A stretch of DNA of 63,595 nt, filler included, from Licmophora abbreviata (taxonomy: Eukaryota), in assembly GCA_900291995.1 (NCBI GenBank). It is 12 parts of 12 records of this genome, joined end to end, with 100 filler letters (N's around TTAATTAATTAA, not from the genome) between each part and the next. Parts side by side here need not be neighbours in the genome. Positions count along the whole stretch, not along the records: positions 23,619 to 30,522 come from OLMU01004198.1; positions 30,623 to 36,735 come from OLMU01004199.1; positions 36,836 to 41,859 come from OLMU01004200.1; positions 41,960 to 44,372 come from OLMU01004201.1; positions 44,473 to 60,718 come from OLMU01004202.1; positions 60,819 to 62,226 come from OLMU01004203.1; 6 more parts are not named here. One strand, written 5' to 3'. Positions 29,781 through 61,017 of this stretch are shown piece after piece. The notes beneath the pieces were generated by a model that made no database searches, was not told where the DNA came from, and saw only the letters and a list, made by a program, of their open reading frames with translations. How positions within the stretch are numbered: the stretch's first letter is position 1; the number at the start of each line of letters is the position of its first letter. Made by a program: the position numbers and the translations under genes.

Positions 29781-31881
29781 CTACGCCGTATCGCTCAAAA
29801 TGGTCAGTTTCCTTCTCTTATCCGCAGTTTTCGCCATTAGCTCGGTGATGGCGGTTGCCGACATCGTACGACAGTCGACGCTGTCAATTGCAACCAAGCG
29901 GTCACCTTTAGATCAGACGCGATGGGAAAAGTTCAGTGGCGAATGTGAGAGAAGCTTGTACAGAACCTGTGCTTCGAAAACACACACAGAAAGCAGTAAC
30001 GTACCGGGCCACAAGACACCCTCCAGAGGCGATCCGGGGTTGACAGTATGAATGACTGGTCCTTGTAGCGTCGTATCAATAACAATCCCCAACTTTCCGG
30101 GCGGGGCAAAGCATTCTCGAGTAATCATGTCACCACCAGCCGGCATTGGGATGGAACCCATGTTGGGAATCTCGGTAGGGATCGGAGCAGTAGAAGTGTA
30201 GTTCATTGGAGACATGTCCGAGGCTGCTTGAGACTGAGCATCGAAGCCGTGGTCTAGACTGTAGGCATACGACATGCTGTCACCCATCAATGTGTCAGCG
30301 CCAAGCTGGGAGTTCACGTCCGAGTTCAGATACGACAAATCGTCCGACCCCGTTCGCTGAAGCGGAATGGCACCATCCTCTGCGCCCGAGTCTATGTGTC
30401 TACCCTCCGAGTCAGACGACGCAAAGAACCTGTTCTGCCGTCCCGCTGCACTGGCCGTATCCGGTGGTTGGCCCCACGAGGCAGCATCGTTGCCTCCACG
30501 ACCTCGTCGTTGCCACAAAAAANNNNNNNNNNNNNNNNNNNNNNNNNNNNNNNNNNNNNNNNNNNNTTAATTAATTAANNNNNNNNNNNNNNNNNNNNNN
30601 NNNNNNNNNNNNNNNNNNNNNNCCAACCCAAGGCTACAAATACCCCACCAGCAACTGCAATACCAATAATGGCTCCCGTCGAAATGCCCGAGTTGCCCCC
30701 GTCTTCTCCCGGCGTAGGAGCAGGCGTCGGCGTTGGGCCATTTCCGTCAACAGAGCTGTCGATCTCGTTGACAGTCGCAAAGTATTCGCCAAACGGACTC
30801 TCAAGCGACTGCAACTCTGGCAAAAAGAGCGAAGTACCTTGAAAGCGGAATAGATCACTGCACAATTCACCGAGGTCGACGTCGTCTGCCGTCTCCAACA
30901 TGCCCTCAACTGGTTCAAACTCGCCCATGACCAACATATCTGTATCCAAGGGCGAAAGAGTCTCGCTCATTTGTAAGCGACGCAGCATCCTCGTGGTCCC
31001 CAAGGCTTGAGCCGTGAGTGTCAGGTTAGTTATGACAATGGGCTGCTCCAGCTGTCCAAGCTGCTGAGAAAGAAAGTCAAATGCTACGGCAGTGTACTGT
31101 TCTGTCGTATCTGCGTCCATCGCGGAGGCGACATCGCTGAGCGAAATTCTAAATTCGCCCGTTGTCATGATAGGGCCTGTGGTTGGAGCGGCAGATGGAG
31201 AAACAGGAGAACCCGAGCTTGGCGCAACCGACGGCAGAAGGCTGGGACTTTGCGAGGGGACAAGGGATGGAACTCCAGAACCAGGAACGGGGACACTTGA
31301 GGGCATCAATGATGGAATGATGGAGGGGGACTCGATGGAATGATGGAGGGGAGACCCGATGGTTCGATAAGCCCGGAAGGATTACTGGAAGGGGTCGTGG
31401 ACGCCACAGACGATGGTCCCATAGAGGGAGCCTGAGTGGGAACATCTGGAGCGGTAGGGCCTTCTGTGGGCACGATGGACGGCACGTCGGTCCCGGGGAC
31501 AGTGGGAGACAGTGACGGGGTGCCACTAGAAAGCGCTGTTGGACCTCCAGTGGGAGCCAAAGTCGGGGGCGTTCCTGAAGGAGAGTCCGATGGAGTGGAG
31601 GTAGTCGGGGATCCACTCGGAAAGTTCGTTGGAGCAGACGTGGTCGGGGATCCACTTGGAGAGCCCGTGGGAGTCACAGTATTCGGCACTCCGGAAGGCG
31701 CAATCGAGGGAGAAGACGTGGTTGGCGGTGCGATGGGAGCTTCACTCGGTGCCGTAGAAGGAGGCTCTTCCCCGGCATCGTCGGCTACCACAGACACAGC
31801 CCCCATCTGCAACAGGAGACTAAGAATCAGCAGTGTGGCCCACCAACGAGTAGCCGTGTACGACTTTCTCAGGGCGGTCAT
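29781..31881 (-). CDS. Type I membrane protein: signal peptide, P/S/T stalk, SEA-like domain with RxL loop, TM, cytosolic C-terminal PDZ-like domain (intron 29906-30004; frameshift near 31327; spans gap 30523-30622)
   Basis: Signal LLILSLLLQMGAVSVVA; RMLRRLQ; TM AIIGIAVAGGVFVALGW-[gap]-LWQRR; PDZ APPGKLGIVIDT..GPVIHTV..SPLEG.LWPG|DRLVAID...RKLTIL, stop at 29781. Confidence 0.75.
30523..30622. other. Artificial contig spacer
   Basis: Same 100-nt spacer. Confidence 0.97.
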
Positions 31882-32530
31882 TGTGTATTTTGTATTTCCA
31901 AAATCAAAATGCAGTCTCGTAAATTGATCCACGCTTGTACTTCCAAAGCGTCTCTTCGTCCCGATTCTATGCCGCTGCTACCGTTGGGCCTGTTTCTTCT
32001 TAGCTGGCACGAACGCAGGAGTCACGTTCCAAGCAAGAGTCAAACAGAGACTGCCACAACGTAGTCTCGCACACTCCGATGCAGCAATATTATGAGACGC
32101 CGGCGCCGGCGTTGAGACGAACTATGGAACTTTGAGATTTCACTCGCAGGCATGCGACATTGTAGAATTCGGTACAAACGCGACGCAGACGTCCAGATCG
32201 ATCCGTTTGAAAGTATGGAGGAAATTCAGTGCTGAATATAGTAATTTCAACGCCCGGCGTGCGCGCAAGTCAAAATGGATTTCGCGGTCCAAGAACCTGG
32301 AGAGATCTGCCTCAACCTCCCAGCCTCCAAGAGATTGCTGGTACCCGGTACGTACCAGTATGCTTTGTTGAGATTGTGTGAGTTAATGATGAGAAAATTC
32401 CAGGAGACGCTATACACCAACTGTACCGGCTCTCAGTGATTGACAAAAACTATAAACTATAGACAGTACGTCCTTTTTATGCAACACGCATCCACACATA
32501 CGCAGCATAGAGAATCCCGCTCTAATGCCG

Positions 32531-35260
32531 CTATGGGTCTGGTCGATACTCTTGTGACCTCTTATAGTAGAGAGATTCTTTGGGAGGTCGATGAAACCTT
32601 TGCAGGTTGTTGACACGGGGCGTCTCCGCGACTGCATTCACTTTTGAGTCTAGTTTCCCTTCCCATACACTTTCCATATCCGTAAGATCATCCAATATAC
32701 CTCCCGTGCTCCTAGCTGACCTCGTGTCGAGCTGAACGAACTGAGTGCCCTTGGGAGTCGCTTGATTAGTAACGAATCCACCCTTGGGCGTTTGCACCTC
32801 GCAATCTTCCAATCTCGCCTGTTTGGGAGTTTGCTTTCGATGTCCAGTAGATGTGGGCGAGAGTGCAGAGAACGTCCGCATTTGTACAGAGTCGTCATTG
32901 CCGTGCTTAGTAGCAGCACTTGCTGCTTCATTTTCTCCTATCGGGGCCAGAGGCGACGGTCTGTATGCTTCCGAATGCAAGGACAAGTACTTGTCCTCGT
33001 TGCCTGGCATGACAATCGAATCAGTTGCTTCTGACCTGCCGTCCGACAACATTTGCGCATACTTTTCTGTAGCTTTCATAATTTCAGCGTACTGATGAGC
33101 GAACAAAGACAACGCAAAAACGTGAGTTTGAAAGGAACCTAAATAATGCATTGTCATGCGAGGATCGAATCCTGTACATACCGTAGTCCCTTCAGGTTCT
33201 CTCGTTGCCGATGCAGTCGACGGGCTGTCCACTTGGGATACTTTGAGATCTCGGTCTGACACCTGGAAACTTCTGTTCGACGCTTGGAGACTTCTGTTTG
33301 ATTTGAGGTACATTTCCGAGTCAGTTGGTGATGCCATATCTCTATAAGAAGATCGATAGAGAGGTTGACCGACAGAATCTTTTGTCGAAATACTTAGCGA
33401 ATCCTCCGATTCCATCGAGCCGCGAACACGCCACTCGTCATTCGCGTCATGGTATGAGCCCGACTCTCTTCGCAGTCTCCAAATGACAAAACCAATTACG
33501 CCAACAGCAACCACGCTCAAACCGACGATCATTCCAACCAGGGCAGGGCCCTCCAGCTTTGAAGAGCTGCTCGTGAGGGGAGACTCCAGAGAGGATGCAC
33601 TGGGTTGAACCCCATCATCGAAGAAATCTGAAGCACCCGACAACTCGTTGAGATACTCGCTGTACTTTTCAGTGAGGGGCTTTGTAACGATATCATCAAA
33701 AAGGACATTACCAATATCTTTCTGACTGCGTTGCCAGACATCACCGGCAATCTTCATCTCAATCTTCAGCTGCGAGGTCTGCAAGCCCCGAGAAGCACTA
33801 GGTTGGATCTGGCCCAGTCGTCGAGTACCTTCGAGGGTCTGCTCCGTTACCAAAACAGACGCAATTGTGATCAGGAAGTCGCTAGATTGCTCAATGTTGG
33901 CCCTGATAAAATTTAGTGTGGTCGACTCAAAGACTGCCTCAGTACCGACATCCATCAACTGACTCGCAGTAAAGCTTACAGATGTCAATGCTACACGTTC
34001 CGTCGAGCTGGTCGGCATCGAGGTTGGTAAATTTGCTGGCGTTTCCGATGGAGCCGCGCTAGGTTGATGAGATGGTGATACCGTCGGATCGTCCGTTGGG
34101 GACACTGACGAGACCATGCTTGGTTGATACGAAGGGTAAGTACTCGGTCTATCTGATGGTCGCACTGATGGAGACACACTGGGGGCCCTGCTAGGGGACG
34201 CGGAAGGTACCGTGGAGGGCTGACTGCTCGGCGAGGCACTCGGGCTCTTAGTTGGTTGCAACGAGGGAGAGAGACTGGAGGCTCCGGTCGGATGTACGGA
34301 TGGACTTCCACTCGGAACGCTTGACGGAGAAACGCTCGGACGCGCAGAAGGAGAAAACGACGGCATTACAGTAGGAGCATCGGATGACTGTACTGTTGGT
34401 CTTGCTGTCGGGCCTCCACTGGGTTGGAGCGTGGGCGAGACGCTGGGAGCACTTGACGTCGTTGGGCTCGTCGAGTGCGACAATGTCGGGAAATTGGTGG
34501 GCATCCTCGATGGCCCCCAGCTTATCGATGGCCACTCGCTGTAAAGTGCTGTCGGCTGCAGTGATATCGTCGGAAGACTGGAATGCAACGCACTTGGTGA
34601 AGTTGTTGGTCCATGGGGTAACACCGCCGTTTCTGTCGGGGCAATAGATGGCATCATTGACATGGATGGAGTTCCAGATGACTCCTCCGTCGGCATGGAA
34701 GATGGAACAAGCACTGTTGGAGATGATGACGGGCTTTGAGTTGGAACCGCAGAGGGACTGGGCGAAGGAATCATTGTCTCTGTTGGAGCATCTGTCGGTA
34801 GCGAAGATGGACGATCTGAGGGGGGTGCACTGGGGATCATGGACGGGGAGGGAGATGGCTCCGGCGAATCCGTTGGATAGAATGTTGGTGAATCAGTTGG
34901 GGTCAAAGTGGGTGCTGGGGAGGGCTGCACTGACAAAGTCGGCGCGCTCGACCGAGTAAGAGTTGGTGGTGCGGAGGGCAGGATACTCGGAGCATAGCTT
35001 GGCTGATCGTTTGGGTCAAGCAAGACATCTGTTGGGGCAGAACTAGTTGGCAGGTTTTGCACTACAGGTGTGGGAGCCGGCATCATTGACGGTGCCATCG
35101 ATGGGTCGACAAGGACTGCCGTCGGGCCAGTTCCCGAGTTCAGAGTCTCATTCTTCTCACATGCCGCAAGTGGTAACAGTACAAGAAGAACCAGCGCATA
35201 TCTCCACTGCAACATTTTGGGTTGCGGAAAGATAGTCAAGGCACGATTCTCTTGAGCCAT
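32531..35260 (-). CDS. Type I membrane mucin-like protein with a long P/S/T stalk, SEA-like domain (RRL, RGL), TM and long cytosolic tail; likely start 35215; in-frame intron 33092-33181
   Basis: Signal MLQWRYALVLLVLLPLAAC; many PS/PT repeats; TM ALVGMIVGLSVVAVGVIGFVIWRL; 90-nt GTATGT...CATCAG intron. Confidence 0.8.
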   Translation of the reverse strand: MAQENRALTIFPQPKMLQWRYALVLLVLLPLAACEKNETLNSGTGPTAVLVDPSMAPSMMPAPTPVVQNLPTSSAPTDVLLDPNDQPSYAPSILPSAPPTLTRSSAPTLSVQPSPAPTLTPTDSPTFYPTDSPEPSPSPSMIPSAPPSDRPSSLPTDAPTETMIPSPSPSAVPTQSPSSSPTVLVPSSMPTEESSGTPSMSMMPSIAPTETAVLPHGPTTSPSALHSSLPTISLQPTALYSEWPSISWGPSRMPTNFPTLSHSTSPTTSSAPSVSPTLQPSGGPTARPTVQSSDAPTVMPSFSPSARPSVSPSSVPSGSPSVHPTGASSLSPSLQPTKSPSASPSSQPSTVPSASPSRAPSVSPSVRPSDRPSTYPSYQPSMVSSVSPTDDPTVSPSHQPSAAPSETPANLPTSMPTSSTERVALTSVSFTASQLMDVGTEAVFESTTLNFIRANIEQSSDFLITIASVLVTEQTLEGTRRLGQIQPSASRGLQTSQLKIEMKIAGDVWQRSQKDIGNVLFDDIVTKPLTEKYSEYLNELSGASDFFDDGVQPSASSLESPLTSSSSKLEGPALVGMIVGLSVVAVGVIGFVIWRLRRESGSYHDANDEWRVRGSMESEDSLSISTKDSVGQPLYRSSYRDMASPTDSEMYLKSNRSLQASNRSFQVSDRDLKVSQVDSPSTASATREPEGTTVCTGFDPRMTMHYLGSFQTHVFALSLFAHQYAEIMKATEKYAQMLSDGRSEATDSIVMPGNEDKYLSLHSEAYRPSPLAPIGENEAASAATKHGNDDSVQMRTFSALSPTSTGHRKQTPKQARLEDCEVQTPKGGFVTNQATPKGTQFVQLDTRSARSTGGILDDLTDMESVWEGKLDSKVNAVAETPRVNNLQRFHRPPKESLYYKRSQEYRPDP

Positions 35261-36735: not shown

Positions 36736-36835
36736 NNNNNNNNNNNNNNNNNNNNNNNNNNNNNNNNNNNNNNNNNNNNTTAATTAATTAANNNNNNNNN
36801 NNNNNNNNNNNNNNNNNNNNNNNNNNNNNNNNNNN
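36736..36835. other. Artificial contig spacer (flanking contigs overlap by about 54 nt)
   Basis: Same spacer; GAGCTCGTTG...ACTGCTTC occurs on both sides. Confidence 0.97.
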
Positions 36836-37907: not shown

Positions 37908-39722
37908 CTACGACTTGTTGTTTCGAGACTCTCGGGCGGCGCGTTTTCGCTCGCGAAGGTAAGAAGATAGGCCTTGTTGGTCGTCTTCCACAAGATTTGC
38001 GCTCGGCTTTTTGGGGGGCGTCGAGGATGGGGCCACCTCACCGTCATCGGTACTAGGCGTGGCATTGATCTTTCTTGACAGTTCACGAGCCTCCTCCCGC
38101 AGCTTCAATTTGGATGTCACTTCATCGGGTGGGCCGGTGGGGCCTTCTCGCTCATCAAAAGGTACGTCGCCGAGCGAATCGTTCCGTCCTGGTTGGAACT
38201 GAGCCGCTTGAACCTTGTCACCGGGAGAATTCGTGTCATCGTAGCTTAGAAATAATGCATCGTCCAGCACTACCACAGCAGCATCATCGTCTTCGTCAGA
38301 TTCGGCTCCTCCCAGCAACGTCGTTCCGCCAGCACCCACTTCAGCATAGGAAAATGTCGATTCCTCTCCTGGTGATCGCTCCACAGATGGTTTCCGAGCG
38401 TACCGAGTCGCCCTGTTAATCTCAGGGCTTCGCGACTGTCTTCCCTGGTACAATGCGAGTTTTTGCAAGAGTTCCACCTTTTCGCCGTCCTCTGGTTCGT
38501 GATCAAACTCCGACTCGCCCACCAAAGAGTATGCATCAATGCTCTCATCCGCAACGGACGCATCACCAGAAATAACCTGGACTTTTCCATCGTCGCCGCC
38601 ATATGTGAATTCTACTTCTTCTGGTCGATGATCCATGGTTCCTTTCAACTCTTCCTCTTTCTTTGTTTTCGTATTGCTCGCTCCCACCGTAATTGAGTCA
38701 GCGCCGCTGATCTCCACAATTCCACTCTCCGTTTCATATCCCTGATACTCAGAGGTACGAGGAAGCGGTGGCGGAGGTCTCGATGGGGGCGGCGGTGGGG
38801 ACGACCCTTTGAAGTACCGAAAGCCGACAAAGCCCAGAAGAGCAAGAGCTGCCGCTCCTCCAATCGTCACACCCGCAATCAACCCTGCATTGCTGCCACT
38901 CCCCCCGTCACCACCGCCATCGACCACCACATCTTCCACGACAACATTGCTGCCAATATCGGGATTCAAATCCAGGAAGCTCTGCAACCCTTCTTGATTC
39001 TGCAAAGCGCTCTCTTGCGACTGCTGCACGGTAGCCTCATCCGGCACTGGTTCAGTCGCAAAGCCTGCGTGTCCCGCATAGGTTATACTCGTCAAGGTAC
39101 TGTCCTGCAATTTCCTATTGCCGTTCGCTACCTGCAGATCGACTGCGCTCAACGTGGGAAAGTCGGTTCTCATTTCCATCAACAAGAATGCTTCCGTCGT
39201 CGTTGTCAAGGCAGAGACGTCGTCGACAGATCCAGACAAAATCAATTGAAAGTTTTGCAAATCCACATCGATTCGTCCCGTGGGAGAGGCGGAAGGGGCT
39301 GCGGAAGGGGGTGGGGAAGGCATGGATGTGGTCGGAGTTGAAGTGGGCATGGGTGTCACGGTGGGAAACATGGTCGGGTTGAATGATGGTTCTGTGGTGG
39401 GGGAATTGGTCGAGGGTGTACCCGTGGGAGCCGCCGTTGGGGTGGAGCTAGGGACAAGTGTCGGTGTCCTCGACGGCGAGAAAGAAGGGGGGTATGAAGG
39501 GGTGCTGGTCGGGGCAGGAGTCAAAGGAACGGGAGCTGATGCACTCGGAGAAAACGTAGGTGCCTCAGTTCTGTCTCGCATCAACTGCCGCCGTCGTTCG
39601 CCGTTGGTAGACCGTGACACGTGAGTGGCTCCGCGGAGCTGGGCGCAGTCTGCCTCAGTTTTGTTCACCTGGAAAAGACATACTACCGCCAGAAGATCCA
39701 AGCTCCTTCTCCAAGATTTCAT
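37908..39722 (-). CDS. Type I membrane protein: signal, RRRQL, P/S/T stalk, SEA-like domain with RKL loop, TM, poly-Pro and acidic cytosolic tail
   Basis: TM LIAGVTIGGAAALALLGFVGFRYF followed by PPPPPSRPPPPLPR. Confidence 0.8.
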   Translation of the reverse strand: MKSWRRSLDLLAVVCLFQVNKTEADCAQLRGATHVSRSTNGERRRQLMRDRTEAPTFSPSASAPVPLTPAPTSTPSYPPSFSPSRTPTLVPSSTPTAAPTGTPSTNSPTTEPSFNPTMFPTVTPMPTSTPTTSMPSPPPSAAPSASPTGRIDVDLQNFQLILSGSVDDVSALTTTTEAFLLMEMRTDFPTLSAVDLQVANGNRKLQDSTLTSITYAGHAGFATEPVPDEATVQQSQESALQNQEGLQSFLDLNPDIGSNVVVEDVVVDGGGDGGSGSNAGLIAGVTIGGAAALALLGFVGFRYFKGSSPPPPPSRPPPPLPRTSEYQGYETESGIVEISGADSITVGASNTKTKKEEELKGTMDHRPEEVEFTYGGDDGKVQVISGDASVADESIDAYSLVGESEFDHEPEDGEKVELLQKLALYQGRQSRSPEINRATRYARKPSVERSPGEESTFSYAEVGAGGTTLLGGAESDEDDDAAVVVLDDALFLSYDDTNSPGDKVQAAQFQPGRNDSLGDVPFDEREGPTGPPDEVTSKLKLREEARELSRKINATPSTDDGEVAPSSTPPKKPSANLVEDDQQGLSSYLRERKRAARESRNNKS

Positions 39723-40609: not shown

Positions 40610-41644
40610 TTAGTTGCCCTTGCCCTTGCCTTTTCCTCCTTTCTTCATGGCCCCTCCCTTGGAACCACCCTTGCCCTTGCCTCCTTTCTTCATGGCTCCT
40701 CCCTTGGAGCCACCCTTGCCCTTGCCTCCTTTCTTCATGGCTCCTCCCTTGGAACCGCCCTTGCCCTTGCCTCCATCTTTTTTCTCACCCTTCGATCCCA
40801 TCTTTTTGTCGCCTTTGCCTTTAGGCATGGGGTTGGCAGAGGGAAGGAGAACGGCATCGATGACATGAATGACTCCATTGCATGCCTCGATATCGAAGGC
40901 AATAATCTTGGAATCGTTGACCTTCGGGGGGTGCAAGGAAATCTTCACCTTGTCGCCCTGTAGAGTCTTGACCTTCTGTCCATCTTTCAAATCTTCGGCG
41001 AAAACTTCCCCGGCGACCACATGGTAAAGCAGAATGTCTTGGAGATCGCCCTTGTTCTTGGGCTTCAAGAGTGTGTCCAAGACACCAGACGGGAGGTCGC
41101 CGAAGGCCTCGTCGGTAGGGGCGAATACGGTGAAAGGTCCGTCACCCTCAAGAGCGTCCACGAGATCAGCGGCAACGAGGGCCGCGACAAGTGTGTCAAA
41201 GTCGCTATTACTGGAGGCAATCTCGACAATCGACATGCACTTTTCGGGTTTACCGCCCTTGCCACCCTTTCCGCCCTTGTAGGCGCCCTTCGAGCCCTTG
41301 CCACCCTTGGGTCCTCCTTTGGGGCCGCCTCCACCCTTGGAGCCTTTCCCCTTGCCCTTGCCACCCTTGGGTCCTCCTTTGGCGCCGCCTCCACCCTTGG
41401 ATCCTTTCCCTTTGCCCTTGCCACCCTTGGAGCCTCCTTTGGCGCCGCCTCCACCCTTGGAGCCTTTTCCCTTGCCCTTGCCACCCTTGGAGCCTCCTTT
41501 GGCGCCGCCTCCACCCTTGGAGCCTTTTCCTTTTCCTTTGCCCTTGCCCATTTGCATGGCTCTTTCCGAGGTGGTAGCCTCGGTCGTGTGGACGAGCAGC
41601 GCCACGGCGCCGAACAAAGCCGTTAGAATCTGGGAGATCTTCAT
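40610..41644 (-). CDS. Secreted fasciclin (FAS1) domain protein flanked by Lys/Gly-rich repeat blocks
   Basis: Signal peptide; FAS1 motifs [41 protein letters not shown]; blocks [16 protein letters not shown] (x4) and [15 protein letters not shown] (x3). Confidence 0.9.
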
Positions 41645-41859: not shown

Positions 41860-41959
41860 NNNNNNNNNNNNNNNNNNNNNNNNNNNNNNNNNNNNNNNNN
41901 NNNTTAATTAATTAANNNNNNNNNNNNNNNNNNNNNNNNNNNNNNNNNNNNNNNNNNNN
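41860..41959. other. Artificial contig spacer
   Basis: Same 100-nt spacer. Confidence 0.97.
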
Positions 41960-44372: not shown

Positions 44373-44472
44373 NNNNNNNNNNNNNNNNNNNNNNNNNNNN
44401 NNNNNNNNNNNNNNNNTTAATTAATTAANNNNNNNNNNNNNNNNNNNNNNNNNNNNNNNNNNNNNNNNNNNN
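44373..44472. other. Artificial contig spacer
   Basis: Same 100-nt spacer. Confidence 0.97.
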
Positions 44473-47222: not shown

Positions 47223-48957
47223 ATGGTGCGACTGCGAAAAAGCGGCGTTCCTGCGTCCATCACTGCGGTAATGACGAGTAAACCGTCTTCTTCCTCCAAA
47301 ACTACCGGTACCCCCAGTACTACAGGTACTAGTAGTAGCAGAGACAACAACGACAACAGGCTGTCCTCCAGTAGTAGCAGACGACTCCAGTCTGCCCTCA
47401 AGCGTCCTCCCATTCTTCTCATTTGCTTGGCTATCCCCATTGTGGCTCTTTGGGTCAGTTTGAATGTTCATTCCATGACTGCATTTCACTCCAATCAGCA
47501 GCTGAACGGCGGCATCCTTGCTCGACACCGCAAATTCCCCCACTTCAAGCAAAGGAAAGAAGCGCAGCAGAGATTAAGAATGGACTCTTCTCCGGATGGT
47601 AATCATGAACTTTCCTCCCGTAAGAAGACGCGCGATCAAGTCATGCTGGACATACTTCAAGCTCGCGTCACCTTGATTGAACTCAGTGTCCCCATGGGTG
47701 CCCTCAGCTCCCCTTCCGACTCATATCACGGCGTCACGGCCCGATTCTGCAAAGTGCGGTGGGATCTTTACAAACAAGACCCTGCCAAGACTCCCATGTT
47801 TAAGGACTTGTTAAAGGCCAGTGAAGATTGTAAGTCTACCAAGGATTTGATCAGTGTCAACTTTCAGGATGTCGTCCAACAAGTGCGCAAGTATGATGAC
47901 GAGTACCATCCGTTAGAGGATGAGAATCCAGTGCACTCGTTGGAATTGGGTGGCGTTGTGGCGCACGAGTCGAGGTGTGGGAGTACGCTGACGGCGAACT
48001 TAATTACGGCCGCGAATCCGGCGGAGCATCGCATGTACAGCGAGGCGGCACCGCCCTCGACTGTCTTTAAACGGTGCGAGGCGGATTCCGAATGCGATTG
48101 GGACAAGACGACGAAACTGCTACAGGACGTCTTGTACGTCATGGCAAGGTCCAATAGTAAGAAAGAACGACGGGTCTTTTATAAATTGCAAATGAGTGGC
48201 AGTCGGAGTCTGTGGCTTTGGAGAAAGGCAATGCAAGAAGAACAACAGAATGCAGTATCATCCGAATCGTCCGATGAATCGTCGTCTGACGATTCCTCCG
48301 AATCATCGTCGCCGTCACCCTTAAAGTGGGTTTACATCTTCCGCGATTCCGTCGAGGCGCTCATGAGTCATTACAATGGTGCCGATGACTTTGATCGGAG
48401 CAAGAAGGCGAAGGCGGCGTGTTTGCGCATCATGATGAGGCCACCGCCGCTCTTGAAGGAGACGGCCTCTCATTTCTTTGGGGGGAGAAAAACCTTGAAG
48501 GAAATGACCAATACTGAAGCGTGTGCGGTGCATCTGGTGAGTTGTGACAGGTTGTGCTGTGATCTGTGACTACTACTACTAGTGTATGCTAATCCTAACC
48601 CCGTTGTCCCGTTCCTTCTTTATTTCAAAGACGGCATTGAATGAAGCAGCCGTGACGGAGCATGAGGAGCACGGCGAGGGTCACTTTGTAGAATACTCGT
48701 CACTGCCCGATGCGGTCTGGGAATACATTTTGCCAGACGTCTTTGATGTGCCGCTGGAACAGGCGGGCTTGGCTCACATGAAGGAGGTATCGGGTGTTTA
48801 CAGCAAGATCCATGGAGGAAAGATGGTTGGGAAGGAGTGGACAGAGGATAGTGCGAACAAGACCAAGTCGGCTCCAAGAAGCGTACAGAAGGTTGCCACC
48901 ACAATCATGGGAGACTCATATGTCAAGCTACATGAACTGGCTTGGCAGAGTTCATGA
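47223..48957 (+). CDS. Type II membrane P-loop sulfotransferase-like protein; intron 48537-48630
   Basis: TM ILLICLAIPIVALWVSL; 5'-PSB-like HESRCGSTL; IFRDSVEALMSH (3'-PB-like R..S); GTGAGT...CAAAG intron joins VHL|TALN. Confidence 0.65.
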
Positions 48958-51023: not shown

Positions 51024-52262
51024 ATGACGCGAGTCCTGCTGAACTGCCCCAATCGGTTGCTCCTGTCGACGGTTGGCTTTATTTTTGTAATCTTGCTGCC
51101 ATGGCGCATGCGAATGGCTGAAACTTCCAATTTCGGAGAAGGTTCCTTAGGTGTGATGGCGTCCCTTTCGCAGGTCAAGGATCCTACATCAGCGATTCTG
51201 GCGCAGAATATCGAAACTTCGACTGAACAGGCGGACTCAACCAGCGGCACCTCGACTCCTTCGACCACCGCGGATAAGATCACCCATGGCACAACAAAGT
51301 TCCTCCCTCTAGTCACGATGGCAACTCGATCACCTGGAAGCCAGTCCTCGCGTCATCCTAGCGTTCTCGCCGTCAATGGCCATTCGTGGCGTAAAAGATT
51401 CCCACGGCATCACGAGTCACTTCCAGAGTACGATCCCAACAAGAACAACCATGAAAACAACAACACCACCGGCGATGACGCCGTTTCTGATAAAGATAGA
51501 ATATGGGGCTGGAATGTCCCCGGTGTGCCAAAGATATTTTATACTCATGGTATTGGTCCATCCTTTGGAGTCCCTCTTAAGCTTCCCACCCCAGTGTTGG
51601 TCGTGGGTATGCCCAAATCGGGAACTTCGTCGATTCGAGACTTCTTCCGCTGCAACGGCCACAATGCTTCGCACTGGAGGTGCGTAGGATCGGACTCCAA
51701 CACCAACGCCTTCTGCGCCCACACGATTCGGCACAATATTATCGCAGGACGCCCAGCCCTAGTCGACACAGGAAACTACCATGTATATGCACAAATGGAT
51801 GTCGAGCTGCCGTCGAACACGAACTTTACGAAGGAAGATGTGTGCTATATGCCGCAAGTGAAAAATTTGGACAAGCTTCATGAGAGTCATCCCAACGCAA
51901 CCTTTTTGCTGAATCGTCGAAATGTCACCACTTGGATTGACAGTCTGAGGCACTTTATGAGATTTGATGATAGACTGAGAGATTGCAATCTCACAGACTT
52001 CCCACCCGGCATGGGAGAGACTGATGCAGAGCTGGAGACATTCTATCACAGTCACCTGAACAACATTCGAGAGTTTGTGAAACGACACCCAGGTCATGCC
52101 TTGGTGGAATTTGACATTGAAGCTTCTACTGCTGGATCTGTTTTGGCTGACGCGTTCGGGCTCCAAGAAGAATGCTGGGTAAAGCGGAATGCTCGCCCTC
52201 GCGCAGTACTGAGAGCTGAAGACGAGGGAAGAGAAATGCCAGATTCTAAGGTTGATGCATAG
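51024..52262 (+). CDS. Type II membrane sulfotransferase-family (P-loop) protein
   Basis: TM LLLSTVGFIFVILLPW; 5'-PSB VVGMPKSGTSS; PNATFLLNRRN..WIDS. Confidence 0.75.
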   Translation: MTRVLLNCPNRLLLSTVGFIFVILLPWRMRMAETSNFGEGSLGVMASLSQVKDPTSAILAQNIETSTEQADSTSGTSTPSTTADKITHGTTKFLPLVTMATRSPGSQSSRHPSVLAVNGHSWRKRFPRHHESLPEYDPNKNNHENNNTTGDDAVSDKDRIWGWNVPGVPKIFYTHGIGPSFGVPLKLPTPVLVVGMPKSGTSSIRDFFRCNGHNASHWRCVGSDSNTNAFCAHTIRHNIIAGRPALVDTGNYHVYAQMDVELPSNTNFTKEDVCYMPQVKNLDKLHESHPNATFLLNRRNVTTWIDSLRHFMRFDDRLRDCNLTDFPPGMGETDAELETFYHSHLNNIREFVKRHPGHALVEFDIEASTAGSVLADAFGLQEECWVKRNARPRAVLRAEDEGREMPDSKVDA

Positions 52263-52379: not shown

Positions 52380-52870
52380 TGTGAATCTTGACTTTTTCCT
52401 CTGCAGCGTCTCTCATTTCTGCTGTGGTATGGATCGCGACGGAGAATGACTCTGATGGGTCCAGACACAATACATCCGTAGTTCTGTGGCATGCAATTAT
52501 GGAAGAGTATTCACGCTTCGGCGTTGTATGGTCTAGCTCCCAGATATGATGTCACACCGAGCTCGGTAACAAGCGGTCTCTGGAGTAATAGCCCCAAAAC
52601 AGCTCATTTGTTGGAGAGTGGTACATGCCAAAGTAAATAGTCTTAAAGAGCTGCACCCAGCGAATCCGAGGGTGACCTGGATTTTGAATGAATGGATTGA
52701 GAGCATACGAAACTATCGCGGCTGGAACAACAAATTTTCCAATTGCGACATGAGGGATTTTCCGATAAGAAGATCCAACACGGCAACTGATGAACACTTT
52801 GGAATGTTCTAGTTTCTGGAGGACAATCCGGGTCACGTGCTCAATACCATATTGAGATCGATGTCGAAGA
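52380..52870 (+). pseudogene. Degenerate tandem remnant of the upstream sulfotransferase-like gene
   Basis: Collinear fragments DFFLCSVSHFCC, FCG, WYMP, LKELHPANPRVTWILN..WIESIR..CDMRDFP, FLEDNPGH, EIDVE, with stops and frameshifts. Confidence 0.65.
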
Positions 52871-53668
52871 TCAGAACTCATGAAAGCTTTTTGCTAATGT
52901 TTTCGGCTTACGACATGAAAGTTCTTCAATGGAGAGTTAAGTTGTTGACTGAAAGTGGCATATCGCGCTTACTTGTACTAGCTATCATGTGTCCGAACCT
53001 GGTATGCAAAGTTCGTTTTGTGTACTTCCGTGGTCAGTTATTTCTGGCTGCCGGTTGCTAGGTGGCTCCAGGGGCGCAGGGGTTTATAGTTTTATGCCGT
53101 TCAGTTTCGATAACATGCAGGCGATGCTTCGTGGCGAGGCCTCTCTATGCGCCAGAATGCATCGGAAGATGGACCCCCCACACCAGGCCCTTCACATGCC
53201 GGCGAGGAGGATTTCATGGTATGCTCGTGTGGTCGACGAGCGCGAAAAACGCGCACCAAGCAGTCGTTGTCACTCGACAACCAACCAGTCCCGCGACCAA
53301 ATAACGACTGGTCACATCACTCCGGGTGGGATCGGTAGGGAATATATAAGTGTATACGGCATGTTTTCCAAGTAATTCAGACATATTAAGTATTGTTGGA
53401 CATCTGCGACATACTTGCTTGAAGGTCGGTTTTCTCAACATAAAGGCATTTTGAATTCGTTGACAAGTTTGCTATGGAGAAATTACGTAGGATTCTACGT
53501 AGATGTTCGTTTTTGTCGGTTGGCCAAACTCCACAATGCTTTTCTGGAGCGCGCCCTCACAAAATCGTTCGTTTGGCATCTCATCACAACATCACAACGA
53601 ACGCGACGCGACTTCAGTGTTGTTTTCCAGCTCAAATTCTTTCGGTGAAGTGCCTTGTAGCTAGTACA

Positions 53669-54922
53669 ATGCTCCGCTCGCTCCTTTTGCTTCTTGTTGG
53701 CTTCGGCTACCTCGCTTTGTGCTTCGGCAGTCAAGAGGTCGCTCTTCCAAACCTCACTTTGCAGGTCCAGTCACGAGCCCAAGTTCGCGCGGGAAGCTTC
53801 CTTTCCCACCTCCTACGGGAAACCGACGATTTTCTTCATTCCTACTTCATAGACTACCTCTCAAAGACGGGCCCTACTTACACCAACCTTGGAGATGTGG
53901 ATCTTCGTATCGTGAGCTACGATACAACAGGTGACTACTATGCCGACAAGATGGAAACTTCAATTGTCATCTTGGAAGGAAGAGCAATTTTCGATGACGC
54001 CCCTACTCCTAGCGAGGGAATCATGTCGAACTTAGTTCGAGCTGCTTTTCAGAGCAGCTCGAGGCTAGAACTCGTCGCGCGGCTGCTGTCATCGCAAAAC
54101 ACTTTCCTCTCATCAATGGAATTTCTTGTTGTTTCCGTCGACGGTGTCGTCATTGCGACCGAGGACCTAAGTTCCGGGACCGAGAGCAAAACTCCCGGGA
54201 GTGATGACGATAGCTCATCGACCAAGCTCATCATCTTGATCGCTTCTGTCGTCGGTATTCTGTGCCTTTCGGTCGGTGTTGGCATATTCGTCGCCTTCTT
54301 GTGTCGTCGCAAAAACAAAGGCGCCGCACCAGTCACAGCGAAAAGATCCAGAAGGAGGAACAAACATCAGCATGACTTGGAGATGCAACCGACTCGGTCC
54401 CCATCGCCGGTTCGATCGATTGCCTCCCAGGATTCGAGTAAATTCACCTTCAACCCAAGGTTCGCTGGAGCGTCCGGTGATAGCAAGTCGGCCGATTCCA
54501 AGTCTCTACCGTCGAACTTTTCTGCCATTCAGGTGGATGTGTCACAAGCTGTAGATGTCAACGCGTGGACGAACAATACTATCAGCCCCATTACACCAGC
54601 ACCTTTTGGTCACGACATAAGTGCCATTGAAAACAAGAAAGATCTGAGCCTCATTGAGGAAGGATCCCAAGAGGACATCACTCCAGCTTCCAAGAGCGGT
54701 TCCTATTTGTCAAAGGATAGCTTGTTACGAGTGGACTACTCTGTTCCTACTCAATATACAACATCATCAAAAAAGTCCCACTCAACTCAGGGTCTAAACC
54801 ACGTCTCCTTCTATTCCGAAGCTGATGACAGTCTTGCGGAGAGCGACGGCAGCGATGTGATCAGAGATCTCCAGAACCTTTCCGTTCAGATTCGAAGTCA
54901 CCGTGGTAGCAGCCGTCTCTGA
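53669..54922 (+). CDS. Type I membrane protein with a SEA-like ectodomain, TM and Ser-rich tail ending -SSRL
   Basis: Signal MLRSLLLLLVGFGYLALCFG; TM LIILIASVVGILCLSVGVGIFVAFLC followed by RRK. Confidence 0.8.
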   Translation: MLRSLLLLLVGFGYLALCFGSQEVALPNLTLQVQSRAQVRAGSFLSHLLRETDDFLHSYFIDYLSKTGPTYTNLGDVDLRIVSYDTTGDYYADKMETSIVILEGRAIFDDAPTPSEGIMSNLVRAAFQSSSRLELVARLLSSQNTFLSSMEFLVVSVDGVVIATEDLSSGTESKTPGSDDDSSSTKLIILIASVVGILCLSVGVGIFVAFLCRRKNKGAAPVTAKRSRRRNKHQHDLEMQPTRSPSPVRSIASQDSSKFTFNPRFAGASGDSKSADSKSLPSNFSAIQVDVSQAVDVNAWTNNTISPITPAPFGHDISAIENKKDLSLIEEGSQEDITPASKSGSYLSKDSLLRVDYSVPTQYTTSSKKSHSTQGLNHVSFYSEADDSLAESDGSDVIRDLQNLSVQIRSHRGSSRL

Positions 54923-55542: not shown

Positions 55543-58380
55543 ATGATGACTCCATTCTTGCAGCTGCTGACGGTAACATTGCTTCTATGCAGAGCTTCAG
55601 CAGGAGGGATAAGGAGAACTAACGGGTTTGAGATGAACGTGACGTTCAGCGATGATGGATTGACCATTTCTTTGCCGCCTTTCTTGGTTCAGCTCTTCGA
55701 GACCGACGGAGATTTACCTGATGATACCAACAGTCACGTCGCTCAGGCTCTCGACACTTTTCTGCTGGCAGAGTTGAATGCTGTCTTTGCCCCTGACAGA
55801 GAAATCGAAATGATAAACACGACCGTCGTGTCTGATGCTTACGTCGAAATAAATGAAGATGACGGGCGCCGAGCTCTACTCCGGAGTGGCACCCTGACTT
55901 CTCAGGAGCGGATAGCATGGCGCATGTCACGTGGAGCAGCGGACACAGTGGTTGATGAGCAGAGCTTTCTGCGAGGACGCCGCAGTCTAGATACAATCGT
56001 CGGAAGCGAGTTGGAGATGCTCGTCAATGTCACTTTTGATCGCGTTCCTGCCCCAACTGGTGAAGATGTGAATGAAGCTTCTCGCCTTATCATGGCGGAC
56101 CTGGATTACTTTCTGGCAAATCTGACTGTTTTCAATGATGCGGAACTCGAGAATGTCAGACTTGCGTTTCGTCGCGAGATTAAAGCGCCGACACCCGCTC
56201 CGATAGCCCCACTACCAACTTCGGCTTTAACATCCTCCCCTACATCTGCACCGACAGTGGCACCGACATCTACACCCTCATCTACACCGACGCAATCCCC
56301 AACTTCTTCGCCGACACCCATGCCTTCCTCCGACCCTACTTCGATGCCAACATCTTCACCGACAGCTATGCCAACGCCCGCACCGACGCCCATACCCACA
56401 TTGGCACCAACGGCTACTCCTTCTGCAGCGCTAACTATTGCGCCTTCAGCCGTTCCCACACCCGTGCCATCTCCCGCTCCTGTCGAAATGCTAGCAACAA
56501 GCTCGCCGGCTCCAGATAATAGTGGAGGCACCCCGACTCTGCCGACCCTTGCTCCGATGGCTGAACCATCTGTTCCTACGTCTCCCACCTCATCCCCGAA
56601 CAAAAATGGAAACACACCGACTGATGATGGTGCACCATCTACACCATCCCTTGCTCCTAGTACCGGTAGCGATTCAACCAGCTCCCCGTCTCCCACGGAA
56701 TTGGGTGTTGGGCGAGTCGGCGAATCATCTGGCGCTGCAACGAGGTCGGGTGGATCCGACAACACGGTTCTCATTGTAGCTGTGACGGCAGGTGCAGCTC
56801 TGGTGGCGCTCATTGGCCTCTTTCTTGTACGTCGACAACGCCGATCGGATGACTCGGAAAAGAATTATGCAGATATACAGTCTGACCTGGAGAGCCTTGA
56901 TCGATCTATGCAGAGCCTCAGTATCAGCAAGGAAATTGATTTACTGGAGGAGGAGGACAATGCTGACAGCGTCTTTATGGGGCTAGAAAGCGAATCTCAG
57001 ATGGCAACAAGTCCACGTATTCGGGCAAACAAAACTGGGCTCAGTTTCTCGAGTGCCACAACACTAAAGGCAACAAATGCGGCGCCGAAGACTGGTGCAC
57101 CTACACCAATGTCCTTGCTGACGGTTGGGTCCAAATCGCTGTTTGCGTTTTCAGAAGAAGAGGACGAGGGCGAGGACGAGGAATATCCTGAAGCAATGAA
57201 CGCAGACACGAACGGGTCACAGCTCAATAGCATCCAGGAAAAAGTGGAAACAAGTCCATTGGACCTTGCGACACCACCCATGCTGCTCAGCAGTCAAGTC
57301 AGACCTCCGTCTACTAGTTCGAAGGATATGTCGGTTATTCAGCAGCGATCACTCTTTACAGGAAGTGACTCGATTGACGGAAAGAAGCCCACTCCTCTCA
57401 AGCGCAACTCGTCTGGGACAGCCGTGGCAGCGGCTGTTGCCGGTGCCACTGCTGCGGGTGCCGCCGTAGCTGGACTTATGTCGGGGCGTAGGAGACGAAA
57501 GAAGAAAGAACTGGATGAAGCCAGCAGGTCAGACGCTAGCGAAAGCTCCGATGGGGTCAACCCAGGTGACGGCATTGAGGCATATAGCCGCCGCCATACA
57601 GACTATCGTACGGCTGGGGATGGCACAGCGCTCTACCAAACAGCAGCAGCAGTGCAACCACTCGATTGGTCGTACCAGTCCATGACGGAAGCATCAGACA
57701 GCGAATCGACTCTGTCGGAGATCAGTAGTGCACCTAGGACTCCGAAGCAGATTGCGTGGACGGAAGAGCAAGAAGAAGAAAAAAGAAAGAAAATGGGTCT
57801 TAGTCCATTGACGTCCCCTCTGTCTCATGGAACCGCGAAATCTCGCTTCTCAAAAGACAACGATGCCATGCGTTCCCCACACACTGCGGGAATCACAGAA
57901 GGCTCGGTATCCGACAGTCGGCAACTAATAAATGACCTGGTGTGGCTCGAGAAGAAGATCGCGGATGTACGCAAGTCCACCGCTGTCGAGTCGTCGGCCA
58001 AGAACCTTCTTTCTTCCCCTCCAGGGGTTGATCAGACAGACTCATTGTCGTTCGCTTCCAAAGATGCGGCTATTTCTCCTACATCTAACGCGGAGTCCGC
58101 GACTAGTCCGTCGCAGAATGTGTTGGATAGCATTGTATGTCGCGACTGTGTCGCTCCGCCAGGAATGCTCAACATTGTGATTCATTCGACAAAGGATGGC
58201 CCAGCCGTCCATACCATCAAGGAGGGAAGCAGCCTGGAAGGACATCTATTTCCGGGCGATCTCATTATTGCTGTAGATGGTGTGGATACACGGACCTACT
58301 CGGCAGAACAAGTGATGAAAATGATGGCCAACAGGAGCGAGTCGGAGCGAAAGATTACTGTACTTCACTTTGACGAGTAG
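55543..58380 (+). CDS. Type I membrane protein: signal, SEA-like domain with RRAL/RRSL loop, P/S/T stalk, TM, long tail, C-terminal PDZ-like domain
   Basis: TM VLIVAVTAGAALVALIGLFLV; PDZ APPGMLNIVIHSTKDGPAVHTIKEGSSLEGHLFPGDLIIAVDG...RKITVL. Confidence 0.85.
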   Translation: MMTPFLQLLTVTLLLCRASAGGIRRTNGFEMNVTFSDDGLTISLPPFLVQLFETDGDLPDDTNSHVAQALDTFLLAELNAVFAPDREIEMINTTVVSDAYVEINEDDGRRALLRSGTLTSQERIAWRMSRGAADTVVDEQSFLRGRRSLDTIVGSELEMLVNVTFDRVPAPTGEDVNEASRLIMADLDYFLANLTVFNDAELENVRLAFRREIKAPTPAPIAPLPTSALTSSPTSAPTVAPTSTPSSTPTQSPTSSPTPMPSSDPTSMPTSSPTAMPTPAPTPIPTLAPTATPSAALTIAPSAVPTPVPSPAPVEMLATSSPAPDNSGGTPTLPTLAPMAEPSVPTSPTSSPNKNGNTPTDDGAPSTPSLAPSTGSDSTSSPSPTELGVGRVGESSGAATRSGGSDNTVLIVAVTAGAALVALIGLFLVRRQRRSDDSEKNYADIQSDLESLDRSMQSLSISKEIDLLEEEDNADSVFMGLESESQMATSPRIRANKTGLSFSSATTLKATNAAPKTGAPTPMSLLTVGSKSLFAFSEEEDEGEDEEYPEAMNADTNGSQLNSIQEKVETSPLDLATPPMLLSSQVRPPSTSSKDMSVIQQRSLFTGSDSIDGKKPTPLKRNSSGTAVAAAVAGATAAGAAVAGLMSGRRRRKKKELDEASRSDASESSDGVNPGDGIEAYSRRHTDYRTAGDGTALYQTAAAVQPLDWSYQSMTEASDSESTLSEISSAPRTPKQIAWTEEQEEEKRKKMGLSPLTSPLSHGTAKSRFSKDNDAMRSPHTAGITEGSVSDSRQLINDLVWLEKKIADVRKSTAVESSAKNLLSSPPGVDQTDSLSFASKDAAISPTSNAESATSPSQNVLDSIVCRDCVAPPGMLNIVIHSTKDGPAVHTIKEGSSLEGHLFPGDLIIAVDGVDTRTYSAEQVMKMMANRSESERKITVLHFDE

Positions 58381-58513
58381 AAGACACGTGATCAGTAGAC
58401 CTAGCTCAGCTGCATGTAACTTTATGGCTCGTAGAACCAATGGATCGTGTTTGCTCTCAGTAAATTGTATGTATGACATGCTTGTGCCTTTAAAGTCTGT
58501 TCTCTATTCATCG

Positions 58514-59449: not shown

Positions 59450-59628
59450 GGTCAAACCTCTTTTCGTTCAGAGTTTGAAAATATGGCCCGCTTTCGTACG
59501 TCAGTTTCGAGTCCCGCGGAGAACTCAGTCACGAACATGGAAACATGGATGACCATTTTCTGGTCACAAAACGAGAATAGACGGCGTTGTGTTCTTGCTG
59601 TCGTTGTTGTCGTTGTTGATACACAACC

Positions 59629-61017
59629 ATGGTGAGTCCCATGCGACGACGACCCAAGAAGGGAAAATCGCTGGGAAAGTCATTTGCTCGACGGCCGTGG
59701 TCGCGATGCTCTCATGTAGCATCGTGGCAGTAGAACGAGCCTTTGTTTTGCGTGTTGACGACGACGACGACATCCGCTCCATAACGACGAGTACTCGTAA
59801 TGGAAAGAGCGAAAACTTCCAAGTAGAGTCGCCTCATACAGTCCGACGCCAGATATCAGAACAGTCTTTCGCTGACATTGAAAGTACCCCTTGGAAACTT
59901 CACATGAGGAATGGTACTCTCATCCATGCGGAGGATGGACAGCCTAGGATTGCATTCATTACCTACTCGCACCTGTTGACCAAGGACCCCTTCGAGAAAC
60001 TCATCTTACCATCCCTCGATACCTGGCTTCCGAATGGGACCTACTTTGTAATATTAACGAGAGATTCTCAACATGCCTTTCAAGACTTCATTTGTTCCAA
60101 TTCATCCAAAAAGTTCTATCAAACCTCCTACTGCCCCCGCATTCAACCAATCTACACCGACTGCCCCGAAGCCAAGTTTGGTGAATCGCCCTGCTGCAAG
60201 CAAGAACAGGGTTTACTACACATCTACGAAAAGTATGTCAGCGAGTATGATTGGTTTGCCTACTTTGACGATGACATGTATATTCGTATGCCCTACCTCA
60301 ATGAGTGGTTACGCCCCTTGAATTCAGAATACCCCATGATTCTCACATCGGGCCGACAAGGGGCTAGTGTACCACTGGGGCAATCAGGATATGATCCCAA
60401 GAGATCACCCTATATCTGTTCACGCGACGAGCAATTCACATATCCCTGGGGGCAGCCCGTTATCTACTCCAAGGCAGCGTTACAACGAGTTTCTCATGGC
60501 TTTCAGTTACAAGGCCTGACCAAGCAATGCTTGGAATTCAATGTAACTCACGACGTTGGAAATGCCATCTTTCATTGGATGTATCAGTTGCCTGAAATTC
60601 GATTACGCGACTGGGATTTCAACAACATTCATGGCGCGCAGCGTCAAGCGCATGACATGGCCTTTCATGGCGTAGGCAAGTTTCCACGGACGAGCATGCA
60701 AGTTATGCATCGAAAGAGNNNNNNNNNNNNNNNNNNNNNNNNNNNNNNNNNNNNNNNNNNNNTTAATTAATTAANNNNNNNNNNNNNNNNNNNNNNNNNN
60801 NNNNNNNNNNNNNNNNNNGAGCATGCAAGTTATGCATCGAAAGAGTGAAGAGCTTGGGTATCCGGCGGCGCCGTATAACTACTCCTGGCAGCAAGTTCAT
60901 GGATTTCGCCAGACCAATATGTTTCGAAGGTATGGAGATCCAGCAACATGGGATTCCGAGTGGCATACCATGCTAACAAGCGACTGCAATCCAGAAAAGA
61001 AAGGCAGACACTTGTAG
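59629..61017 (+). CDS. Golgi-type glycosyltransferase, GT31/Fringe-like (spans overlap gap 60719-60818; possible frameshift near 59677)
   Basis: YDWFAYFDDDMY (DxD), CCKQ, IYSKAAL, HDVG. The 27-nt duplication across the gap joins ..MQVMHRK|SEELGY.. to the stop at 61017. ATG 59629 gives MVSPMRRRPKKGKSLG before the TM if one A is added. Confidence 0.7.
60719..60818. other. Artificial contig spacer (flanking contigs overlap by 27 nt)
   Basis: Same spacer; GAGCATGCAAGTTATGCATCGAAAGAG occurs on both sides. Confidence 0.97.

Follow-up and report, generated by a model that had tools for sequence, protein, structure and literature searches.

A candidate cluster of transmembrane mucin-like glycoprotein genes in the diatom Licmophora abbreviata

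Membrane protein genes of the region and adjacency of its contigs

The 63,595-base window analyzed in this study, meaning the whole stretch of DNA taken from the diatom Licmophora abbreviata (assembly GCA_900291995.1), consists of 12 contigs separated by 11 identical spacers, all 11 of the form N44-TTAATTAATTAA-N44 (22 runs of 44 N; window 7439-62326). The subject here is the region 29781-61017, which had originally been predicted to be a cell-wall or adhesion locus, and in particular five of its genes, named A to E. As predicted, open reading frames (ORFs) and sequence support five single-pass type I membrane proteins, four of which (A, B, C and E) carry stalks rich in Pro, Ser and Thr (P/S/T), and the same four carry an R-x-L motif in an ectodomain loop. 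Topology was judged from the hydrophobic N-termini and the one strong hydrophobic segment in each protein, giving a common plan of signal peptide, globular ectodomain, one membrane helix and long cytoplasmic tail. The minus strand carries genes A, B and C and the plus strand D and E, and the artificial spacers inside the region number five, not four as originally counted:

29781..30522, minus strand: 3′ part of gene A, with stop-transfer sequence, cytoplasmic tail and PDZ-like domain (read in frame 1 from 30522)
30623..31881, minus strand: 5′ part of gene A, encoding the signal peptide, the P/S/T stalk, an RRLQ-bearing ectodomain and the beginning of the membrane helix (ORFs and sequence)
32531..35260, minus strand: gene B, with signal peptide, P/S/T stalk of about 380 amino acids, ectodomain with RRLG and RGLQ, membrane helix and 315-amino-acid tail (ORF)
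37908..39722, minus strand: gene C, encoding a signal peptide, a P/S/T stalk, a predicted SEA-like ectodomain at 38898-39290, a membrane helix and conserved 300-amino-acid tail (ORF and structure model)
53474/53669..54922, plus strand: gene D, with signal peptide, C-type ectodomain, membrane helix and tail (two plausible starts, 53669 being the second)
55543..58380, plus strand: gene E, with signal peptide, N-terminal ectodomain, P/S/T stalk, membrane helix, long tail and C-terminal PDZ-like domain (ORF)
30523-30622, 36736-36835, 41860-41959, 44373-44472 and 60719-60818, no strand: artificial spacers (sequence)

In A, B and C the stalk comes first and the ectodomain lies between it and the membrane helix, while E has its ectodomain ahead of the stalk. 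Gene A contains one short intron within its PDZ region, and gene B matches the Pfam PT repeat at 3.6e-12. Protein C, whose nearest cluster of language-model look-alikes falls in Bacillariophyta, has RRRQL directly after the signal peptide and RKLQ in its ectodomain. Gene D has neither a stalk nor an RxL loop, and the ectodomain of E contains RRAL and RGRRSL within a long loop. In the stalk of gene A, near 31320-31345, an apparent 1-nucleotide frame change is present inside a direct repeat and represents either a low-coverage assembly error or a real disruption.

The adjacency of contigs joined by spacers can be checked through end overlaps and through genes that span the spacers. Exact suffix/prefix overlaps were found at two junctions, with 53 nucleotides at 36735/36836 and 27 nucleotides at 60718/60819, and blastn of the 600-nucleotide contig ends revealed a further overlap of 71 nucleotides (98.6%, one mismatch) at 8950/9051, so that contig ends overlap at three of the 11 junctions altogether. 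The reading frame of a GT31-like glycosyltransferase gene continues over the 60718/60819 junction. The junction 30522/30623 is without overlap, yet the open frame of gene A carries on across it: the membrane helix stops at the contig edge with ...GIAVAGGVFVALGW, and the adjoining contig starts in frame with FLWQRRGRGG, which then leads into a tail and a PDZ-like domain resembling those of gene E. Tandem paralogues also extend past the spacers at 14042 and 15938. The end overlaps, the junction-spanning gene A and the spacer-crossing paralogues thus make the contig order meaningful, and three of the five junctions within the region (30523, 36736 and 60719) are backed as true neighbours. Moreover, the closest relative of C (P0004; 54% identity over 462 columns) and that of E (P0024; 55% over 972 columns) are both assigned a longest contig of 35,596 nucleotides in one source class, which is most simply explained by one contig bearing both genes and lends indirect support to the junctions at 41860 and 44373. 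A closer relative therefore probably keeps the C and E orthologues on a single contig.

One could regard the apparent locus as an artefact, produced by joining contigs that are unrelated and by setting the boundaries after inspection, so that the genes would be ordinary and unlinked. Artificial spacers do join the contigs into the window, and the region runs exactly from the stop of gene A to the stop of the glycosyltransferase gene. In addition, exact and blastn end comparisons and a frame check found neither an end overlap nor a spanning gene at junctions 41860 and 44373, which set apart a 2.4-kb contig bearing the second of two Lys/Gly-block (K/G) protein genes described below. The overlaps at three junctions, the continuity of gene A over a fourth junction, the paralogues crossing two spacers and the shared contig assignment of the C and E orthologues all argue against an artefact, making this explanation very unlikely. 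Near-identical fragments of the window (82-460 nucleotides, low depth) were found in contigs of three marine metagenome runs and of one run presumed to be RNA, none of them bearing on the junctions, and an exact look-up of ten window proteins in a protein collection retrieved none of the ten.

Relationships, modelled fold and loop motif of the five proteins

The original prediction assigned one shared ectodomain to the five proteins. By sequence, this view stands for A and B and for C and D, stands weakly for C and E, and is not shown for A and B against C, D or E. BLASTP among the 100 window ORFs of at least 90 amino acids detected no similarity between the five ectodomains and linked only the tail of A to the tail of E. 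When the 10 ectodomain pairs were compared by Smith-Waterman alignment with 300 shuffles each, A-B gave a z of 6.2, its score being reached by none of the shuffles, and C-D a z of 2.0, its score being reached by 14 of them; z was below 1 for the remaining eight pairs.

A search of 1.84 billion proteins with the C ectodomain yielded, at E <= 0.001, 20 representative relatives, in some of which the domain is present in two to five tandem copies. One of them (P0006), a bacterial cadherin/RTX protein matching only in pieces of 44-49 residues, was regarded as spurious and left out of the profile; 18 of the 19 relatives taken as real have no Pfam domain. The C-type ectodomain is, as judged from sequence, an unannotated diatom domain family, and a limited literature search found no description of it. 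A profile built from 29 domain segments plus C was searched against the window ORFs with hmmsearch, giving E-values of 3.5e-42 for C, 0.004 for E, 0.0063 for D, 0.94 for A and 5.7 for B. Profile comparison with hhalign matched the C family to D (P 1.9e-5, probability 77.5, 90 columns) and to a six-sequence alignment of the E family (P 6.4e-4, 98 colinear columns), so the relationship between the C and E ectodomains is suggestive. No hhalign match was obtained for the C family against A, B or A+B, and no homologue of the A and B ectodomains was found at E <= 0.01. As no single domain is demonstrable across all five proteins, they are best described as a chain of pairwise relations: A with B, A with E through the tail, C with D, and weakly C with E.

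A and E have a shared cytoplasmic tail with a terminal PDZ-like domain, the tail and PDZ region of A matching E residues 766-941 at an E-value of 6.6e-16. Against Pfam PDZ, the C-terminal domain of E reached 1.2e-4 and 22.8 bits, just below the cut-off of 23.2, and a profile of nine E relatives retrieved 18 PDB sequences at E <= 1, every one of which contains a PDZ domain (best 3.1e-4). Conserved cytoplasmic segments as well as the C-terminal domain are common to E and its relatives, and for C, strong conservation of the tail is seen in P0004. A diatom membrane mucin with a PDZ tail was not found in the limited literature search. Residues 627-651 of E (57421-57495) form an Ala/Gly-rich hydrophobic stretch followed by RRRRKKK, kept in P0001 and P0024; judging by its sequence, this stretch may represent a second membrane-associated segment, in which case the PDZ-like end would have another topology.

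The ectodomain of C was modelled with AlphaFold2 (AF2) from a 17-sequence alignment, with a predicted local distance difference test score (pLDDT) of 89.5 and a predicted template modelling score (pTM) of 0.84. The model contains strands 7-10 and 14-22, helix 25-41, strands 47-56 and 66-77, helices 85-107 and strand 113-123; its element order is β-β-α-β-β-α-α-β, and a SEA-like fold is predicted for C only. The position expected of an extracellular SEA domain, next to a stalk and a membrane helix, is found in A, B and C, with glycosylation of the stalk predicted. With an exhaustive structural aligner, the C model matched the SEA region of zebrafish Gpr126 (Z 8.1), PCDH15 MAD12 (7.9 and 7.7), TMPRSS6 (7.6) and MUC16 SEA (7.1 and 6.9), the top rows being interleaved with ferredoxin-like domains of PheRS, and Foldseek placed MUC16 SEA5 at 8.2e-3 amid many ferredoxin-like enzymes. 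Because a Z under 8 may reflect a common arrangement, the resemblance to SEA is taken as likeness of fold and not as homology, and the C ectodomain is best viewed as a predicted ferredoxin-like, SEA-like α/β sandwich. A SEA-like structure has been recorded for another diatom protein, MRP1 (2026 preprint).

In the C model, RKLQ sits between strands 47-56 and 66-77, that is, in the predicted, exposed β2-β3 loop. Of the 30 domain segments of the C family, 14 have R-x-L at this site, and 12 have the dibasic pattern [RK][RK]x0-1LQ, all 12 occurrences being confined to the loop. Motifs of a like kind follow the equivalent strand in A (RRLQ) and B (RRLG and RGLQ), and in the E family a basic-x-L motif precedes the next strand in five of six aligned rows (RGRRSL, RGKRNL, RGRNLL, RGQRSL and GRRIL), L004 being the row without it. 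Counted plainly, R-x-L in the five ectodomains is at chance level (8 observed vs 5.2 expected). By sequence comparison, the R-x-L signal is thus positional: its fixed site in homologues exceeds chance, whereas its bare count does not. Animal SEA domains are cut in the β2-β3 loop: Mucin-1 autoproteolytically, Notch-2 and human GPR126 by furin (PMC6954182).

These features invite comparison with animal transmembrane mucins and SEA proteins such as MUC1, MUC16, Notch-2 and GPR126/ADGRG6, which likewise have a signal peptide, a P/S/T stalk, a membrane-near α/β sandwich and one helix. The basic motif of the diatom C family lies in the very loop at which Mucin-1, Notch-2 and human GPR126 undergo cleavage (PMC6954182). 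However, the diatom motif is RRxLQ and, save for RGRR in E, not a furin consensus, and no GSVVV-type motif is present; the domain of E is N-terminal to the stalk, the tails of A and E end in PDZ-like domains, and the likeness is at the level of fold only (Z ~7-8). Among diatom proteins, CaFAP1 of Craspedostauros australis is also a cell-surface protein with PTS-rich regions (10.1101/2023.03.06.531300, PMC11420354), but it is described there as alternating PTS-rich and Cys-rich domains, whereas A to E have no Cys-rich modules and are membrane-anchored.

The RXL motifs also raise the possibility that A to E are silicalemma proteins of the SAP/Sin1 kind, with lumenal parts that would be cut off and retained in the silica and tails that would link the vesicle to the cytoskeleton. 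All five proteins have the signal peptide and single type I membrane helix of a SAP, and the plan of a long lumenal part, one helix and a cytoplasmic part, the lumenal RXL motifs and the proposed cytoplasmic coupling are shared with TpSAP1-3 and Sin1; SAPs are, moreover, defined mainly through the organization of their motifs (PMC5647440). Instead of Ser runs, A to E have P/S/T stalks, their densest 23-residue window holding 7-10 Ser against 18 of 23 in TpSAP1 (PMC5647440); the tail is the shorter part of the SAPs described in that source, whereas the tails of C, D and E exceed their lumenal parts; and the folded ectodomain is predicted to be SEA-like. SAPs carry a conserved cytoplasmic domain of 28 amino acids directly behind the membrane helix; no juxtamembrane motif common to A to E was seen by eye. 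On balance, membership in this group appears distinctly unlikely.

Secreted K/G-block proteins, putative modifying enzymes and other genes

Alongside genes A to E lie genes for secreted proteins, for putative modifying enzymes and for housekeeping functions. The first two kinds are as follows:

40610..41644, minus strand: secreted fasciclin (FAS1) protein of 344 amino acids with K/G blocks on both sides (Pfam Fasciclin, 5e-37)
42925..43821, minus strand: secreted K/G-block protein of 298 amino acids with a central PTPHPVPP repeat (ORF and composition)
47223..48957, plus strand: ST1, a type II membrane protein probably of sulfotransferase type, with one short intron near 48570-48620 (reading frames and look-alikes)
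51024..52262, plus strand: ST2, Sulfotransfer_4-type, with an N-terminal hydrophobic anchor (Pfam)
~52400..52950, plus strand: decayed ST2-like copy, limited to the C-terminal half and interrupted by a stop codon and a frame change (tblastn and frames)
59706..61017, plus strand: GT31-like glycosyltransferase, spanning the spacer 60719-60818 (27-nucleotide overlap and continuous frame)

Both secreted K/G-block proteins of the original prediction are present, and one of them proves to be a fasciclin protein: its match to PF02469 (127.3 bits) covers profile positions 2-123 of 123 and is therefore a whole-domain match. The PTPHPVPP-containing protein has no Pfam match. The two proteins contain 20% K and 25-27% G, with Ser at 6% and 13%, and are encoded by tandem repeats, the fasciclin gene having coding repeats of 45 and 60 nucleotides. 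Between the two genes, blastn gave 66-74% identity over low-complexity coding repeats and near-exact matches (90-100%) of 23-30 nucleotides, which do not tell duplication from shared composition. A recent duplication of the two genes was considered and set aside, the matches amounting to these repeats and short stretches only.

Like silaffins, cingulins and CcSSP1, the K/G proteins are secreted, Lys-rich and repetitive, and one of them has a fasciclin domain as CcSSP1 does (compared by its description in 10.1101/2021.09.18.460806). They differ from silaffins and cingulins, whose K residues cluster as KxxK, in that K and G alternate (KGKG, SKGG), as well as in their Ser contents and in two motifs. 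The penta-lysine pattern K..K..K.{1,2}K..K, used for silica targeting and taken from the same source, occurs once in the fasciclin protein, the sole match among the 100 window ORFs, and is absent from the K/G-Pro protein; R-x-L, the motif of the N-terminal propeptide site, is nowhere in either K/G protein.

With regard to the predicted pair of sulfotransferase-like genes and their pseudocopy, ST2 is upheld by its profile match (Pfam Sulfotransfer_4, 4.3e-8, 33.7 bits vs a cut-off of 22.8) and the decayed copy by its similarity to ST2 (tblastn 1.95e-7, 28-35% identity), while ST1 is assigned through language-model look-alikes only. ST1 lies nearest to a cluster of diatom tyrosine-sulfotransferase-like proteins (score 0.95, 206 shared features), and its ten best named look-alikes all belong to the tyrosine-sulfotransferase family or clan, suggesting that ST1 is probably a Sulfotransfer_3/TPST-like sulfotransferase. 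ST1 has no Pfam match, and neither ST1 nor ST2 has a PDB sequence match at E <= 10. The GT31-like glycosyltransferase was found as anticipated, with matches to CHSY3 (3.2e-7) and C1GALT1 (0.012) and one to Pfam Fringe (3.1e-4, 20.6 bits) just under the cut-off of 21. Its protein sequence contains FDDDMY, a putative catalytic DxD-type motif.

The housekeeping genes that had been noted in the region are likewise present, namely those for a ubiquitin-conjugating enzyme (UBC), a GNAT acetyltransferase, a short-chain dehydrogenase (SDR) and a Cys-loop channel. The last, a pentameric ligand-gated ion channel gene at 44895-46637 on the plus strand, matches the ligand-binding domain at 1.1e-23 and the membrane region weakly.

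Several further genes lie outside the region. On the minus strand at 9518-16365, five tandem paralogues (30-46% identical) encode single-pass membrane proteins whose C-terminal unit of ~90 amino acids is repeated and for which no Pfam match was found. A segment of two genes, one zinc-type alcohol dehydrogenase-like and the other a small ORF, is duplicated at 5063-6771 and 25543-27031 with ~55% protein identity, and the paralogous genes at 22367-23344 and 27544-29313 have no Pfam match; in the longer one, a ~120-amino-acid module is duplicated internally. At 18492-20582 on the minus strand is a gene for a 696-amino-acid protein that combines FG-GAP repeats (3.9e-13) with a P/S/T content of 32% and a single membrane helix; proteins of the FG-GAP type appear among silica-associated proteins (10.1101/2021.09.18.460806). 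A copper type II ascorbate-dependent monooxygenase-like gene with both domains, at 7797-8950 on the plus strand, enters a 33-nucleotide tandem repeat at the contig end.

Origin and possible function of the cluster

Local duplicates are frequent throughout the window, including ST2 and its decayed copy, and local duplication therefore accounts for A/B, for C/D/E, for ST2 and its copy and perhaps for the two K/G genes. Our preferred reading, in which our confidence is evenly divided, is that the region is a real and largely contiguous stretch of diatom nuclear DNA, treated here as an assembly of environmental data, where a small group of transmembrane mucin-like glycoprotein genes has arisen through local duplication. 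The adjacency of the K/G, sulfotransferase-like and GT31-like genes to the mucin-like genes is more likely to reflect duplication and ordinary gene density than a co-regulated locus, although these neighbours are, each by itself, plausible candidates for surface-matrix or modifying functions.

The alternative of a co-regulated locus, with membrane anchors, a cationic matrix and modifying enzymes working jointly in silica deposition or adhesive secretion, would draw on several observations. Components of these kinds are known from the silica proteome of a diatom, CcSSP1 being a fasciclin protein, CcSSP22 a sulfotransferase and 18 silica-associated proteins single-pass membrane proteins (10.1101/2021.09.18.460806); the categories also have counterparts in adhesion work, and the RRRQL directly past the signal peptide of C is the usual RXL site of biosilica proteins (PMC5647440). 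The probable linkage of the C and E orthologues in a relative points the same way, as does the fact that 10 of the ~14 intact genes in the region fall into the originally predicted categories. Weighing on the other side are the housekeeping genes in between, the single penta-lysine match and missing R-x-L of the K/G proteins, the long instead of short tails and missing SAP-type Ser runs of the membrane proteins, and the finding that ST1 and ST2 are not paralogues (BLASTP E 8.7).

Synteny also speaks against joint regulation. A search through the channel gene gave 58 pattern matches and no relative, and a search through E gave 11 loci, two of which were of useful size (contigs of 13.7 and 15.5 kb, from more distant relatives). 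In these two, L001 and L002, the neighbourhood of E is not kept: of the 100 window ORFs, none except E and the tail of A matched at E <= 1e-4, and the neighbours of the E-like gene are instead genes for a ribosomal protein S10e-like protein, an E1-like enzyme and a leucine-rich repeat (LRR) protein. L001 4287-6050 and L002 4624-6484 are syntenic with each other and not with the window, sharing an S10e-like gene and a ~300-amino-acid protein with the same terminal motif. Taken together, the co-regulated locus is considered unlikely. As to its function, the identities of the parts (stalked glycoproteins, a fasciclin K/G protein and modifying enzymes) do fit the secretory pathway and cell surface, in line with the original prediction, whereas silica-specific signatures are mostly absent.

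Several points weigh against a duplicated cluster of mucin-like genes. Cleavage, localization and glycosylation are all inferred, and no sequence test connects A and B with C, D or E. The fold was modelled for C alone, the model of A, with only B as alignment, being unusable (pLDDT 36.2), and a Z near 8 is within the range that a common fold can yield. Foldseek of the C model against PDB returned nothing at E <= 0.001, none of the five ectodomains matched Pfam SEA (PF01390) at E <= 10, and GS[VI]V is absent from all real ectodomains, its sole match lying in an antisense ORF. Lastly, the concentration of the predicted categories in the region is real by count and is not repeated in the left 29.7 kb of the window, which has none of these families; it has other membrane proteins, including the tandem family and the FG-GAP protein.

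If the five genes do form a mucin-like cluster, their products could act as follows. The stalks would be O-glycosylated, and perhaps sulfated, in the Golgi, and the proteins would travel to the cell surface or possibly to the membrane of the silica-deposition vesicle. There, the β2-β3 loop may be cut by the protease that processes diatom RXL sites, after which the halves would remain associated, or the stalk would be shed into wall or mucilage, with the tails binding cortical partners through conserved motifs or PDZ.

A more specific proposal is that the β2-β3 loop of a SEA-like domain houses the RXL processing signal, previously known solely as a short motif of silica proteins, and that the proteins are convertase-cut, force-sensitive transmembrane mucins linking adhesive or silica to the cytoskeleton. 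The stalks would then be anchored in wall or mucilage and the conserved tails and PDZ-like domains would hold cortical partners, while the sulfotransferase-like and GT31-like enzymes would serve as modifiers and the K/G proteins as matrix partners. This proposal is speculative and, in our estimation, unlikely to be correct. The predicted SEA-like family with its RRxLQ loop is the most useful result, as it makes a testable hypothesis of cleavage out of what was a loose argument from motifs.

In summary, should cleavage not be confirmed, the region would be an ordinary cluster of paralogues; should it be confirmed, it would supply a mechanism for the RXL motif and tie it to the shed-on-force logic of mucins and Notch. 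Wall building and gliding in diatoms both require membrane proteins that join outside material to the cell cortex, few of which are known to us, and the region described here offers a compact set of candidates.

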